Source: Dehalococcoidia bacterium (lineage in GTDB: Bacteria; Chloroflexota; Dehalococcoidia; DSTF01; JACRBR01). Taken from it: a stretch of DNA of 41,282 nt. The notes under the pieces are model-generated. The model searched no databases. It was not told the origin of the DNA and worked only from the letters and a program-made list of their open reading frames with translations. A program made the position numbers and the translations under genes. Positions 7,623 through 22,964 of the stretch are shown here, piece after piece (within the stretch, counting starts at the first letter, position 1; each line of letters starts with the position of its first letter). The stretch spans positions 1 through 41,282 of the forward strand of contig JBGQBE010000027.1 in NCBI GenBank assembly GCA_041494685.1, written 5' to 3'.

Positions 7623-9203
7623 CTAGGCGCGGCGATACACGATCTCGCCCGCAACAATGGTGACGTCTGCGCGCGCATCGAGGATCCGCATCGGGTCGCG
7701 CTCGGTGAGGATGTTGTGCGAGAGCAGCACCGCGTCCGCGTGGCAGCCGGCGGCGATGCGCCCAAGCGTGGCTTCCTCGCGCACGGCGACGGCGCAGCCG
7801 CGCGTGTACGCGCCCAGCGCGGCCTCGACGTTGACGCGCTGCTCCGGGTGCCAGCCACCGCGCGGCTCGCCCGCGGCGTTCCGCCGCGTGACGGCGGCGT
7901 GGACGCCGGCGATCGGGTCCATCGTCTCGACAGGCGTATCGGATCCGAACGCCAGGTTCACCTCCGCGGCCTGGAGCGCCGCGAAGGCGTACGCGCCACT
8001 GCCGCGCTCGCCCCAGGAGCGGCCCACCTTCGCCATGTCCTGCGTCGCGTGGATCGGCTGTACCGACGCCGTCACGCCGAACGCCGCGAAGCGCTCGACA
8101 TCGCCCGGTGCCAGCAGCTGCGCGTGCTCGATCCGTCGCGGCAGGTGTGGTGCGAGGCTACGTGCCCGCGCGATGATGTCGAGCACTTCGCGGTTGGCGC
8201 GGTCGCCGATCGCGTGGATCGCCGGCGCCAGGCCGTGCTCCAGGCACGCGCGCACCTGTCGCTCCAGTACCTCCGCCGGCTGCAGCGCGAGGCCCGTGGC
8301 GCCGCCGCCGGCGTACGGTTCCAGCATCCACGCGGTCAGCGAGCCCAGCGCGCCGTCCGCGAAGAACTTGACGCCGCCGATGCGCATCATCTCGCCGCCG
8401 TCGCCCGTCTGCACGTTGCGCTCGAACCATTCCTCCAGCCGCGAAGCCGAAAGGAACGCGCGGATGCGGAGCCGGAGGCCGCCGCCGTCGTGCAGCGCGT
8501 GCATGGCCTGTAGCTCGCCGCGGCCTACGTCCATCGCGTGTACGCCCGTCACGCCGAGGCTGTGGGCGTGCGCGATCGCATCCTCCATCGCCGCGATGCG
8601 CTCCGGCTGCGTCGGATTCGGCGCCGCGTCGGTGACCAGCCGCATCGCCACGTCACGCAGGATGCCCGACGGCTCTCCGTCATCGTCCCGGTCGATCGCA
8701 CCGCCGTACGGGGCGGCAGTCGCGGCGGTGATGACCGCCGCTCGGAGCGCGGCGCTGTTCACCCAGGAGCAGTGTCCCGACGTATGTACGAGCACTACCG
8801 GATGCTCCGGTGCGACCGCATCCAGGTCCTGACGACACGGGAAGCGCGCGCCCGGCCAGTCGTTCTGGTCCCAGCCGGCGCCGCGTATCCAGCCGCCCGG
8901 CGCTGTGACCGCGACGCGTTCGGCGACGCGGCGCACGGCTTCCGCGACGCCGGCGACGCCCTTCAACTGCACCGACCGCATCGCGGCACCGGTGCCAAGC
9001 AGATGCGCGTGCCCGTCGGTAATTCCAGGCACGAGCAGTCGCCCGTCCGCCTCCAGCGTCTCGACGCCCGCCGGCGGGTTCAGGTCGTGTGCTGCGCCCA
9101 CGAACGCGAAGCGGCCGTCCACGACGAACGCGGTGTCAGCGTTGGGCGCCGATGCGTCGCCGGTCCAGACGTGCGCGTTGCGGATCAGCAGGTCTGCGGG
9201 CAT
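7623..9203 (-). CDS. Amidohydrolase 3 (YtcJ-like) family protein
   Basis: PGITDGHAH, GWDQ, KFFADGALGS, HAIGD, IEHAQ, FGSDTP. Confidence 0.92.
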   Translation of the reverse strand: MPADLLIRNAHVWTGDASAPNADTAFVVDGRFAFVGAAHDLNPPAGVETLEADGRLLVPGITDGHAHLLGTGAAMRSVQLKGVAGVAEAVRRVAERVAVTAPGGWIRGAGWDQNDWPGARFPCRQDLDAVAPEHPVVLVHTSGHCSWVNSAALRAAVITAATAAPYGGAIDRDDDGEPSGILRDVAMRLVTDAAPNPTQPERIAAMEDAIAHAHSLGVTGVHAMDVGRGELQAMHALHDGGGLRLRIRAFLSASRLEEWFERNVQTGDGGEMMRIGGVKFFADGALGSLTAWMLEPYAGGGATGLALQPAEVLERQVRACLEHGLAPAIHAIGDRANREVLDIIARARSLAPHLPRRIEHAQLLAPGDVERFAAFGVTASVQPIHATQDMAKVGRSWGERGSGAYAFAALQAAEVNLAFGSDTPVETMDPIAGVHAAVTRRNAAGEPRGGWHPEQRVNVEAALGAYTRGCAVAVREEATLGRIAAGCHADAVLLSHNILTERDPMRILDARADVTIVAGEIVYRRA

Positions 9204-9239
9204 GCGACGTGATAGCACGCGCCGTGCGAGAGAGACAGA

Positions 9240-9263
9240 GACGCCCGCGCGATGGCGGGCGTC
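9240..9263 (-). terminator. Putative terminator of the rplU-rpmA-rpmE operon
   Basis: GACGCCCGC-N6-GCGGGCGTC stem, followed on the minus strand by a pyrimidine run (TCTGTCTCTC). Confidence 0.5.
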
Positions 9264-9288
9264 GAGGTGACCCGTGTCAGGACTCGAG

Positions 9289-9516
9289 CTAGCCGGGCCG
9301 CTTGGCCTTGACCGCGGCGGACTTCTCCAGCCGCTTCGTGAAGCGCTCGACGCGGCCTGCCGTGTCGACGATGCGCTGCTGCCCCGTGAAGAACGGGTGG
9401 CAGTTGCTGCAGATCTCGATATGCACGTCCGGCCGGGTAGACCGCGTCTGCCAGCGGTTGCCGCAGGCGCAGTGGACGGTGGCTTCGACGTAGTTAGGGT
9501 GGATCTTGGCCTTCAT
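9289..9516 (-). CDS. rpmE: 50S ribosomal protein L31 (Zn-binding C+ form)
   Basis: [31 protein letters not shown]. Confidence 0.97.
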
Positions 9517-9527
9517 AGTGGAGGATC

Positions 9528-9806
9528 CTAGCTCGCCACGGCCTCAGCCGCGGGCGGGTAGACGCTGACCTTCTTGCGGCGGCCCTTCGCGAACGGCTCG
9601 AACTTCACCGTGCCGTCCACGAGCGCATGCAGCGTGTGGTCGCGGCCCACGCCGACGTTGCGGCCCGGGTGGACCCGGGTGCCCCGCTGCCGGATGATGA
9701 TGGTGCCTGGGCGGACGATCTCGCCGTCCGAGCGCTTGACGCCAAGGCGCTGGGAGTTGCTGTCGCGCCCGTTGCGGGAACTTCCTACACCTTTTTTGTG
9801 TGCCAT
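9528..9806 (-). CDS. rpmA: 50S ribosomal protein L27
   Basis: [29 protein letters not shown]. Confidence 0.98.
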
Positions 9807-9812
9807 AGCGTC

Positions 9813-10277
9813 CTACTCTGCCTTCTTGCGGGTGCGCTTAGGCTTCTCAACAGCAGCGACATCCGTGGCAGCCGCCTTGGCGCGGCTGCGCCGCTTCGGG
9901 GCGGCCTCCGCTTCGGGGGCCGCTGCCTCGGCCGGTGCCGCCTTCGTCAGCTTCGGCTGCTCGCCCGGGGCCAGGATGTCACTCACAACCAGCCGCGTGA
10001 AGAGCTGCCGGTGGCCGTTCTTCTTGCGGGAGCGCGTCTTCGACTTGTACTTGAATACGAGAATCTTCCTTGCGCGGCCCTGCTCGGCGATCGTGCCCAG
10101 CACACGCGCGCCGGCGATCACCGGCGTCCCGACCGTGACGCTCCCGGCGTCATCCAGCAGGAGCACGTCGTTCAGCTCGATCGACTCGCCAGGCTCGCCC
10201 GGCAGCCGCTCGACCTTCAGGGCGTGGCCTTCCTCGACGCGGTACTGCTTGCCTCCGGTGCGGACGACGGCGTACAA
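9813..10277 (-). CDS. rplU: 50S ribosomal protein L21 with an Ala/Lys-rich C-terminal extension
   Basis: MYAVVRTGGKQYRV..GHRQ. TTG start with an AGGAGG SD. Confidence 0.97.
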   Translation of the reverse strand: MYAVVRTGGKQYRVEEGHALKVERLPGEPGESIELNDVLLLDDAGSVTVGTPVIAGARVLGTIAEQGRARKILVFKYKSKTRSRKKNGHRQLFTRLVVSDILAPGEQPKLTKAAPAEAAAPEAEAAPKRRSRAKAAATDVAAVEKPKRTRKKAE

Positions 10278-10328
10278 GGCATCCTCCTGGACAACACAAC
10301 GCCTGCCGAGCGGCAGGCGTCGCGAGTG

Positions 10329-10358
10329 ATTCTATCTGCCGCTCCTGAACTCTGTCAA
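10329..10358 (-). promoter_or_regulatory. Housekeeping sigma-70-type promoter of the rplU operon
   Basis: Minus strand TTGACA-N18-TAGAAT, followed by a 10-bp leader hairpin (10299..10320). Confidence 0.7.
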
Positions 10359-10410
10359 ACCGGGCAGATTCGGGAATCCCGGATTCCCCGGAAATGCCGC
10401 TCGCTGCCCC

Positions 10411-10437
10411 TAAAGCACGCAGGGCGACCGCCGACAA
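10411..10437 (+). promoter_or_regulatory. Putative sigma-28 (FliA/WhiG-type) promoter of the archaellin gene
   Basis: TAAA-N15-GCCGACAA versus the consensus TAAA-N15-GCCGATAA: one mismatch and exact spacing, about 120 nt upstream of the ATG at 10559. Confidence 0.7.
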
Positions 10438-10558
10438 TCCTAGGGGAATCTCCTAGGGTCTCCTAGGCGAATCGCCAATGGTTGGAATCGCGGGAAGTTG
10501 CACCTGGTCCTGGCGGGCCGGCCGGCGCACACGAGCTCCGCAGGTTGGAGGTGGCCGC

Positions 10559-11134
10559 ATGAGGAAGCTACGAGCAGTCCTCAGTCGCGTCCGGGAAGAG
10601 AACGGAATCACGGGTCTCGAGACCGCGATCATCCTGATCGCATTCGTCGTGGTAGCGGCCGTGTTCGCGTTTATCGTGCTGAGCACGGGGCTCTTCAGTT
10701 CGGAGCGAGGCAAGGAAGCGGTCTACGCGGGTCTGGCGAAGACCCGCGGGACGATGGAGTTGTCAAGCAACGTGGTCGCGCTGTCCGACGGGACGAAGAT
10801 CACGTCGCTGGGGTTCGATCTGGCCCTCGCGGCGGGCGGTGACTCCGTCAACCTGGACCCCACGGCGACCGCGAACCGCACCGTCATCAGCTACATCGAC
10901 GCTGGCACCGTCGTCAACGACGTGGCCTACACGACTACGATCGTAAGCGGCAACGCCAACCAACTGCTGGAGCCTGGCGAATTGATCCGCATCAATATCG
11001 ATATGGTGGCCAACGGCCTGACCGTCCCGACGAACACGATGTTCACGCTGGAGATCAAGCCGCCAAGCGGTTCGTTCATGGTGATGCAGCGCACCACGCC
11101 AGCCGCGTACGCGTCGGTGAACATCATCCCGTAG
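10559..11134 (+). CDS. Archaellin (archaeal flagellin, ArlB/FlaB-like) with a class III signal peptide
   Basis: REENG|ITGLETAIILIAFVVVAAVFAFIVLSTG N-terminal helix, then LLEPGE and FTLEIKPPSG motifs typical of archaellins. GGAGGT SD. Confidence 0.88.
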   Translation: MRKLRAVLSRVREENGITGLETAIILIAFVVVAAVFAFIVLSTGLFSSERGKEAVYAGLAKTRGTMELSSNVVALSDGTKITSLGFDLALAAGGDSVNLDPTATANRTVISYIDAGTVVNDVAYTTTIVSGNANQLLEPGELIRINIDMVANGLTVPTNTMFTLEIKPPSGSFMVMQRTTPAAYASVNIIP

Positions 11135-11166
11135 CGCTTCGACCCCCGGAACGGGTCACTGCTCGA

Positions 11167-11196
11167 GGGGCGGTCTCGGTAGCTCGAGACCGCCCC
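11167..11196 (+). terminator. Hairpin downstream of the archaellin gene (putative terminator)
   Basis: GGGGCGGTCTCG-gtagct-CGAGACCGCCCC, a 12-bp stem with a weak U-tract. Confidence 0.55.
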
Positions 11197-11241
11197 GAGT
11201 GCTTCTCGCAGGGACTTCCGGCGACAGGCAGAAGCGAAACC

Positions 11242-11275
11242 ACGAAGGGCTCCCCGGTCACGGGGAGCCCTTCGT
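11242..11275 (-). terminator. ftsH terminator hairpin (possibly bidirectional)
   Basis: ACGAAGGGCTCCCCG-gtca-CGGGGAGCCCTTCGT, a 15-bp stem between convergent genes. Confidence 0.7.
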
Positions 11276-11295
11276 TGACGTGCGAGATCGGACGA

Positions 11296-13287
11296 TCAGC
11301 GTTCGAGGCTGTCCGCGTCGAGCATGGTGTTCGACTGGCTGCCCCAGGCGAGGCCGGGCGGGCCGAGCTTCGGCTGCGGGCCGGAAGTGTCCTCCGCTCC
11401 GCGAACCTCTTCGGTGGCTGCGGGCGGCGCCGGCGGCTCCGGTGCGGGCGGCGGCGCCGCGTCGAGTCCGTCCAACACCCGGCGCAGGTCGTCGCCCTCG
11501 ATGTTTTCCACCTCGAGCAATACCTTCACCAGGCGGTCCAGGCGGTCGCGGTTCTCGACCAGGATGTTGCGCGCAGTCTGGTAGGCGTGATCGACGAGGC
11601 GGCGCACCTCCTCGTCGATCTCCTCGGCCACCTTCTCGCTGTAGTTGCGCTGCTCGCCAATTTCGCGGCCGAGGAACACAAGCTCCTGCTTGTTGCCAAA
11701 CGTGCGGGGACCGAGGCGCTCGCTCATGCCCCATTGCGTCACCATGTTGCGCGCGATGTTCGTGGCGCGCATCAGGTCGTCGCTAGGGCCGGTGGTGGAC
11801 TCGCCGTCGAGGATCAACTCCTCCGCGCAGAGGCCGCCGAGGCTCGTCGCCAGCACGTCCTTGAACTGCGAGCGGGCCATCAGGTGCCGGTCCTCCTCGG
11901 GCAGGAAGCGGGTGAAGCCGCCGGCCATGCCGCGGGAGACGATGCTGATCTTGTAGGGCGGGTCGGCGTTCGGCAGCAGGTGGCCGACGAGCGCGTGCCC
12001 TCCCTCGTGGTAGGCGATGATCTCCTTCTCACGAGGGGTGATCACGCGGCTCTTGCGCTCCGGACCGGCGATGACGCGGTCAACGGCCTCGTTGAACTCG
12101 CTCATGCTGATCTTCTTCTTGTTGCGGCGCGCCGCCAGGATCGCTGCTTCGTTCACCAGGTTCGCCAGATCGGCGCCCGAGAAGCCCGGCGTCTGCTTGG
12201 CCAGCACCCCCAGCTCCACGTCCTTCTCGAACGGCTTGCCCTTGGTGTGGACCTCCAGGATCATCGCCCGGCCCCTGCTGTCCGGTCGGTCCAGAATCAC
12301 CTGGCGGTCGAAGCGGCCCGGGCGCATCAGCGCCGGGTCGAGGATGTCCGGGCGGTTCGTCGCGGCGACCACGATGACGTTGGTGTTCGTGTCGAAGCCG
12401 TCCATCTCCACCAGGATCTGGTTCAGGGTCTGCTCACGCTCATCGTGCGACCCGCCGAGCCCGGCGCCGCGCTGCCGCCCGACGGCATCGATCTCATCGA
12501 CGAAGACGATGCACGGCGCATTGCGCTTGGCCTGGTCGAAGAGGTCGCGCACGCGGCTCGCGCCGACGCCCACGAACATCTCGACGAACTCGGAGCCGCT
12601 GATCGAGAAGAACGGCACACCCGCCTCGCCCGCGACGGCCCGGGACAGCAGCGTCTTTCCGGTACCGGGAGGTCCCACAAGCAGCACGCCGCGCGGAATG
12701 CGCGCGCCGAGCGAGGCGAACTTCTCCGGGTACTTGAGGAACTCGACGACTTCCGCCAGCTCCTCCTTGGCTTCATCGACACCCGCCACGTCCTGGAACG
12801 TGACGGTCGTCTTGTTGCCGGTGAACATGCGTGCGCGGCTCTTGCCGAAGCTCATTGCCTGGCTGTTGGAGCCCTGCGCCTGGCGCATCATGAAGATGAG
12901 GATGGCGCCGAAGACGAGGATGGGCGCGAAGTTGATCAGCAGGCTGATCCAGCTGCCGTACGCCGACGGCGCCTTGTACTTGATATCGACGGCCTGGTCG
13001 CCGCCGCCGCCGATGACGACCTTGTTGTCCTGCAGCACCTTCTCGACATCGGTACTGTTGCCGACGCGCGACGTGTACTTCGTCGCGTCGTTCTTCTTCA
13101 CCACGTTGAGCGTCTGTCCGGAGATCTCGATGCTCTTGAGCTGTCCGTCGCGGCCGGCTGCCACGACGTCGCTGAACGGGAGATTCTTCGTATTGTCGCC
13201 GCTCTTGAAGAACGAGACGACGATCGCGATGACCGCGACCAGGATCAGGAGGTAGATGAAGCTGTTTCGCAGCCAGCGGGAACTCAT
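11296..13287 (-). CDS. ftsH: ATP-dependent zinc metalloprotease FtsH
   Basis: Two TM segments, Walker [35 protein letters not shown]. Confidence 0.98.

Positions 13288-21221: not shown

Positions 21222-22964
<1,743 letters not shown>

Follow-up and report, generated by a model that had tools for sequence, protein, structure and literature searches.

The 41,282-nt stretch of DNA analysed here (the window, contig C27 of the assembly) carries an arlB paralog at 10559..11134 on the plus strand. The open reading frame starts with the ATG at 10559, ends with the stop codon at 11132-11134 and encodes a 191-aa archaellin precursor (satellite ArlB), assigned from the ORF itself, its PF01917 match, a PDB match and AF2/Foldseek analysis. 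As the original prediction stated, the gene is located between rplU and ftsH. The gene rplU (L21; 9813..10277, minus strand) is the divergent neighbor, with rpmA (9528-9806) beyond it and rpmE (9289-9516) beyond rpmA, while ftsH (11296..13287, minus strand) is the convergent neighbor; these assignments come from the ORFs. The promoter scan placed a sigma-70-like promoter of rplU at 10358..10329, and the terminator scan placed a terminator-like hairpin of ftsH at 11275..11242. An Rfam search of 9200-11400 found no known leader RNA, and the sub-threshold match to CC2171 (20 bits, gathering score 75) falls on the ftsH terminator hairpin. The satellite arlB has a Shine-Dalgarno (SD) sequence and a downstream hairpin of its own, as had been claimed. 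The SD sequence GGAGG, read from the sequence at 10547..10551 on the plus strand, lies 7 nt upstream of the ATG, and its consensus among the aligned orthologs is GGAGGTGG. Folding of the region 3' of the stop codon gave a GC-rich hairpin with a perfect 13-bp stem at 11167..11196 on the plus strand (z -2.18, with 6/200 shuffles folding equally well), which is a probable terminator or stabiliser and, having no T-run, escaped the consensus scan for terminators.

Profile searches assigned satellite ArlB to the archaellin family. The protein matches Pfam PF01917 (Arch_flagellin) with 86.9 bits and an E value of 2.4e-24 (cut-off 29.5), with residues 16-177 aligned to profile positions 1-161 of 162 and thus to the whole domain, and it matches NCBIfam TIGR02537 (archaellin/type IV pilin N-terminal domain) with 25.2 bits (cut-off 20). 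The match to the NCBIfam euryarchaeal flagellin subfamily NF006325 covers the N-terminal part only and reaches 28.3 bits, below the 210-bit cut-off; since this is a narrow archaeal model, satellite ArlB was left without assignment to it. In the Pfam scan at E<=1, Arch_flagellin was the only family found, with no Flp or N-methyl pilin match. Alignment with ArlB of Litorilinea aerophila indicated a class III signal peptide at residues 1-16 (10559..10606, plus strand), with predicted cleavage between G16 and I17, directly before the hydrophobic N-terminal helix. In this alignment, I17 corresponds to the first residue of the mature chain (I-T-A-L-E) in the solved L. aerophila structure, which supports the predicted cleavage after G16 by homology. 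In the alignment of 29 archaellins, the columns G16, T18, and L20-I24 are invariant, and the translation contains all protein motifs named in the original prediction, namely the G16/I17 site followed by TGLE, the helix ITGLETAIILIAFVVVAAVFA, LLEPGE, and FTLEIKPPSG.

The AF2 model of ArlB, built on 29 relatives (pLDDT 82.9), consists of a helix at residues 19-60 followed by eight strands that form the C-terminal beta domain. In the Foldseek search of this model against the PDB, ranks 1-16 are all archaellins, the first being 9i5h with an E value of 2.3e-14, and no bacterial pilins are found among the top matches. The modeled fold, an N-terminal alpha-helix plus a C-terminal beta-sandwich, is that of the archaellins in solved archaellum filaments. 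HMM searches and structure prediction had been proposed as checks in which best hits to ordinary pilins or Flp proteins would speak against an archaellin, and both returned archaellins.

Archaellum machinery on other contigs

Contig C27 contains only one PF01917 match and no T2SSE or A24 match, and tblastn with the genome's own ArlJ, ArlG, ArlF, ArlH, and ArlI against C27 found nothing, bearing out the original statement that the 41 kb hold no arl machinery or prepilin peptidase gene. The description of the gene as an orphan is therefore accurate within the 41-kb window and does not hold for the genome, where the machinery and four further archaellins lie on other contigs. The genome (3.29 Mb in 87 contigs, 97.6% complete, 68% G+C) has seven PF01917 matches, comprising five archaellins, an ArlG-like protein, and an ArlF-like protein. 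Two archaellins are located at the end of contig C33, the second being cut by the contig end, and two more at the start of C51; C33:34729-35046 encodes an archaellin N-terminus and C51:1-135 an archaellin C-terminus. Since the sequence of C51 begins with the C-terminal part of an archaellin, the two contigs are probably adjacent, and a tandem array of four or more archaellin genes was probably interrupted by the assembly break. The archaellins of C51 are followed by a 234-aa protein (no Pfam match, and weak NCBIfam matches to repetitive proteins only), the ArlG-like and ArlF-like proteins, ArlJ, a 137-aa ORF, and an Amidase_3 protein.

ArlH and ArlI are encoded together in the middle of the 53-kb contig C19 (34639-37143), and the remaining cluster is located at C51:1-5397. 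ArlI scored 636 bits (equivalog cut-off 550) and ArlH 263.6 bits (cut-off 194). ArlJ scored 456.7 bits (E 8e-137), under the NCBIfam equivalog cut-off of 570, which we count against the reading of satellite ArlB as the subunit of an archaellum encoded elsewhere in the genome. Each of the machinery genes arlJ, arlG, arlF, arlH, and arlI is present in a single copy, and the sole A24 prepilin peptidase of the genome is encoded on C20. The genome thus encodes dedicated arlH, arlI, arlJ, and arlF/G genes plus a prepilin peptidase. The full-genome search that had been asked for also found two Tad loci and CheW/CheA genes, and found neither bacterial flagellin nor other bacterial flagellar genes. Of the two roles first proposed, that of a dispersed subunit of an archaellum encoded elsewhere agrees with this inventory.

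The separation of arlH-arlI from arlB-x-arlG-arlF-arlJ is also found in the family members L056, L057, G011, G016, and G018, while the order B-x-G-F-H-I-J is contiguous in other families of the same order. The mid-contig position of arlH-arlI on a separate contig was compared across the loci L056, L057, and L067-L084. Several further genes were observed beside the arl genes. A NarL/LuxR-type response regulator (C33:32686-33438, minus strand) lies divergently beside the first archaellin of the main array and is a candidate regulator of the array. The Amidase_3 protein, an N-acetylmuramoyl-L-alanine amidase encoded after arlJ (C51:5831-6847) and likewise present in the clusters L056 and L057, may open the peptidoglycan for the archaellum. 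Directly after arlI, a 132-aa acidic ORF without a family match (C19:37285-37715; loci L116-L118), whose C-terminal part is kept in three relatives, may encode an uncharacterised archaellum accessory protein or regulator. In the 97%-complete genome G005 (contigs C1 and C17), the rplU-linked archaellin and arlH-arlI are present, and searches for arlJ, arlG/F, and array archaellins found none; this gap is probably an unbinned or missing contig of the MAG, and it could be a true partial loss.

The satellite clade and its predicted promoter

Archaellin matches were found in 36/41 genomes of the window's order, a tally that takes in one unpublished genome (G021) on which nothing rests. The named public loci encoding relatives (70/70) come from Chloroflexota, Dehalococcoidia, Chloroflexia, Anaerolineae-type, or Caldilineaceae MAGs, one of them labelled just 'uncultured bacterium', which fits the mention of Chloroflexota in the original prediction. 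The order rpmE-rpmA-rplU-arlB is present in the best loci of 10/19 relatives and in 15/70 named public loci, and an FtsH homolog is encoded downstream of arlB in 13/70 named loci. In two relatives (L061 and L062), the archaellin gene has kept its place between ftsH and rplU but not its orientation, being inverted and thus co-directional with rplU.

A tree was constructed from 93 non-identical archaellins, for which matches spanning less than 150 residues were discarded and 11 identical rows collapsed. Satellite ArlB belongs to a 19-row clade (SH-aLRT 100), in which 13 rows adjoin rplU and 6 have moved elsewhere. A second clade (SH-aLRT 99) is made up of five further rplU-linked rows, and placing all 24 rows of both clades in one group, a grouping defined only after the tree was seen, was not rejected (p-AU 0.681). 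Both rplU-linked clades are nested in the archaellin radiation of the family itself (48 rows, SH-aLRT 99), showing that the paralog arose by duplication inside these bacteria and not by a second transfer. Comparison of the aligned sequences revealed that 11/13 aligned clade members, satellite ArlB included, have Asn at the position of D127, a metal-site Asp in L. aerophila ArlB, while the array archaellins keep Asp at this position. In satellite ArlB, this Asn lies within GNAN at residues about 131-134. The replacement could mean an altered, not identical, filament chemistry.

Upstream of arlB, we identified a predicted sigma-28-type promoter on the plus strand, consisting of the -35 element CCTAAAG (10409..10415), which agrees with TCTAAAG at 6/7 positions and is conserved in the orthologs, and the -10 element GCCGACAA (10430..10437), which agrees with GCCGATAA at 7/8 positions, with a 14-nt spacer between the two. 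The reference is the sigma-28 promoter of Pseudomonas aeruginosa fliC given in the text of PMC12784957 (-35 TCTAAAG, -10 GCCGATAA, 14-nt spacing). The 16 aligned orthologous upstream regions share CTAAAG, a gap of about 14 nt, and GCCGAnnAT. The pattern TAAA-N14-16-GCCGA occurs within 300 bp upstream in 16/19 clade members, compared with 0.03 per set of 19 in shuffles, and in 0/5 second-clade members and 0/69 other archaellin genes (0/74 outside the clade). The motif stays with the gene after it has left rplU, which assigns the motif to arlB rather than to the ribosomal operon. With a position weight matrix (PWM) built from the orthologs, the arlB site is the top match genome-wide at 29.1 bits, and the next four sites score 17.8-19.7 bits; this regulon scan found no second strong site, and the genes downstream of the weaker matches are not motility genes. 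The main archaellin array and arlH are without a sigma-28-type motif, a weak point of the reading, as the motif gives no sign of co-regulation with the rest of the machinery.

The genome encodes two FliA/WhiG-family sigma factors, one at C4:79135-79950 (TIGR02479, 190.6 bits) and a second at C52:10525-11283 (182.5 bits), the cut-off of the model being 189.6 bits. Such sigma factors are present in 41/41 genomes of the order, including 5 without archaellin matches, so that they do not follow the distribution of the archaellum. In the C52 locus (8942-11283), the gene next after that for the second sigma factor, in the same orientation, encodes a 500-aa HD-domain protein matching the model of a response-regulator c-di-GMP phosphodiesterase family, which hints at c-di-GMP control of this sigma factor. 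The match of both elements and their spacing, the conservation beyond chance, and the two encoded sigma factors together lead us to infer that a flagellar-type alternative sigma factor drives this arlB copy; transcription would start at about 10445 and give a leader of ~114 nt.

Three copies of CCTAGG are found at the predicted transcript start, beginning at 10439, 10452, and 10462 (10439..10467, plus strand). CCTAGG occurs 75 times in the 3.29 Mb, and the only triple cluster is the one upstream of arlB, contained within 29 nt; single or double copies also precede many orthologs, as well as the gene that heads the main array on C33. In the fold, copies one and two form an 8-bp hairpin with each other, and the copies may represent an operator, a second promoter, or a 5' hairpin. 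The predicted 5' UTR (10439-10565) folds no better than shuffles (z 0.44), and no structured leader is claimed on that account.

An ancestral flagellar sigma-28 regulon in the class was also considered. Bacterial flagellin is present in 36/301 genomes of the class. In the flagellated members, the strict sigma-28 motif was found upstream of 0/30 flagellin loci, and a relaxed -10 element upstream of 8/30, compared with 4.0 in shuffles; a few loci look sigma-28-like by eye. These counts do not support such a regulon.

Alternative roles and soundness of the locus

Besides the arlB site, sites matching the sigma-28 consensus with at most one mismatch were found at two other places in the genome, the Tad operon on C9 and C10:67409, the latter being taken as a chance match because no plausible gene lies behind it. 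The C9 site (22660-22686; L120/L122) has the near-consensus form TAAAGC ... GCCGATA and lies at a distance of 39 nt upstream of the Tad operon's first gene. Across the family, the corresponding site lies 37-53 nt before the CpaB-like first gene and is kept in 15/15 loci, L123-L136 among them, and a variant form precedes the Tad genes in 6/9 loci from other families. A weaker element, CCTAAGG ... GCCGATAC, precedes the small acidic ORF after arlI, its -10 part being kept in three relatives.

The second role first proposed for the gene, an archaellin repurposed as the fibre subunit of a Tad-type pilus machine, has to be weighed against these data. The genome has two Tad-type loci with TadA-type ATPases (C9 and C10), the C9 operon shares its predicted promoter class with satellite arlB, and satellite arlB lies physically apart from every arl gene. 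The promoter class is, however, not specific to Tad, since a sigma-28-like element also stands before the small gene after arlI. Satellite ArlB shares 61-65% identity with the cluster-linked archaellins, the N-terminal assembly helix being nearly the same, and both the Pfam scan and the top structural matches returned archaellins alone; in addition, the genomes G025 and G033 of the order have a Tad gene and no archaellin. We therefore disfavor use of the protein in a Tad or type IV pilus and regard it as improbable.

Another explanation is that satellite arlB is a redundant or decaying duplicate that has no separate role and was stranded when the archaellin array was rearranged. The four other archaellins of the array and the scattering of archaellin genes in several relatives are compatible with such an origin. 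Decay would nevertheless be difficult to reconcile with the ORFs, which are intact and full-length in all 19 rows of the clade and likewise in all 5 second-clade rows, or with the conserved signal peptide, helix, and C-terminal motifs. The frequency of the promoter motif in the clade, the presence of the SD consensus, and the retention of the position adjoining rplU across many genera point in the same direction, and we consider this explanation quite improbable.

An assembly or binning artefact joining archaeal DNA to a bacterial contig, for which the 87-contig assembly, the MAG origin of the named relatives, and the archaeal origin of the gene family might speak, is extremely improbable, as contigs from sediment metagenome runs of four other studies span both junctions with zero to few differences and the closest relatives are all Chloroflexota. 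The rplU-arlB junction is bridged by X3 record 13 (10212-10582) and X4 record 21 (10062-10664), and the arlB-ftsH junction by X2 record 3 (10538-11447) and X3 record 14 (10641-11644). A chimeric contig had been named as an outcome that would overturn the original prediction; the junctions bridged in independent runs and the recurrence of the gene order in other MAGs indicate that the locus is not chimeric.

Proposed role and comparison with known systems

We consider it likely that satellite arlB encodes a real and functional archaellin subunit for the archaellum encoded elsewhere in the same Dehalococcoidia genome. In the proposed mechanism, the ArlB precursor would be inserted in the membrane, and its 16-residue class III signal peptide would be cut after G16 by the sole A24 prepilin peptidase (C20). 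The ArlJ platform (C51), together with the ArlI/ArlH ATPase pair (C19), would then build the mature ArlB into the filament, with ArlG/ArlF presumably serving as stator. Satellite ArlB would differ from the tandem archaellins by arlG/F/J in its regulation, having its own putative sigma-28-type promoter, SD sequence, and hairpin. With these elements of its own, its share of the filament would be set separately, and satellite ArlB may be a subunit that is minor or confined to one segment, or one that is produced under different conditions.

An evenly balanced proposal, in our judgment, is that a FliA/WhiG-family sigma factor took over one archaellin paralog and the Tad operon in this flagellum-less family, so that an archaea-derived gene would have been wired into an old bacterial motility regulon and would provide a separately timed filament segment or variant. 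This proposed promoter capture is the sole part of specialist interest beyond the 2025 survey (Sivabalasarma et al. 2025, PMC12488501). Archaella in bacteria were discovered only recently, and the switching-on of genes that arrived with archaeal promoters is not addressed in the text of PMC12488501. If the sigma-28-type promoter is real, it offers a testable case of regulatory capture after inter-domain transfer, and it would explain why one archaellin copy has been kept off the cluster across the whole family. In addition, cluster-based detection can under-count the archaellum parts of Chloroflexota, as satellite arlB and the split arlH-arlI lie outside the main locus.

Archaellin paralogs of Euryarchaeota are usually adjacent and have archaeal promoters, and Methanococcus and Halobacterium have minor and hook-like archaellins. 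Satellite arlB differs from the euryarchaeal paralogs in being detached and in having a promoter motif of the bacterial alternative-sigma type. The distinction between major and minor subunits, each with its own role, is carried over from the multi-archaellin filaments of Euryarchaeota, and here it is applied to genes alone. The presence of several paralogous archaellins per genome resembles the ArlB1/ArlB2 heteropolymer of Methanocaldococcus villosus (PDB 7OFQ), whose chains 7ofq_A/B are matched by the ArlB model in Foldseek with E values of about 1e-9.

Comparison with P. aeruginosa fliC, as described in the text of PMC12784957, shows similar promoter elements (TCTAAAG versus CCTAAAG and GCCGATAA versus GCCGACAA) at the same 14-nt spacer. 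As in sigma-28-dependent flagellin genes, the gene concerned encodes the filament subunit of a swimming organelle, and a FliA/WhiG-family sigma factor is encoded in the genome. Unlike in P. aeruginosa, the gene behind the predicted promoter is an archaellin unrelated to bacterial flagellin, in a genome where no flagellar genes were found. A literature search for the archaellum with FliA returned no paper on the topic as judged by title, and the text of PMC12488501 has no promoter or regulatory content for the L. aerophila archaellum.

The closest known system is the archaellum of L. aerophila, which swims and whose archaellum filament structure was determined at 2.7 Å (PMC12488501). Satellite ArlB matches L. 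aerophila ArlB (PDB 9I5H/9SIE/9SII) with a phmmer E value of 1.4e-36 and at Foldseek rank 1 with 44% identity; the two share the mature N-terminus I-T-x-L-E in the same cleavage register, and the metal-site glutamates of LLE.GE are kept in satellite ArlB. Both hosts are flagellum-less Chloroflexota with arlG before arlF (arl2 order). L. aerophila is an isolate of the Caldilineales, whereas the host here is a Dehalococcoidia MAG, and satellite ArlB has a 5-residue deletion around D121 and N in place of D127. According to the text of PMC12488501, L. aerophila arlB heads a single complete locus, while satellite arlB stands alone between rplU and ftsH, and here arlH-arlI and arlJ are on different contigs. 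The same survey found archaellum loci in 243/3,780 Chloroflexota genomes, from the Dehalococcoidia and Anaerolineae, and its text describes the machinery genes as all lying within one locus, in contrast to the Dehalococcoidia family studied here, in which arlH-arlI is split off. Satellite arlB thus belongs to the published kind of bacterial archaellum, and an archaellin gene alone is ordinary for Chloroflexota; what goes beyond the text of PMC12488501 is the conserved satellite clade, the predicted sigma-28-type promoter, and the split arlH-arlI.
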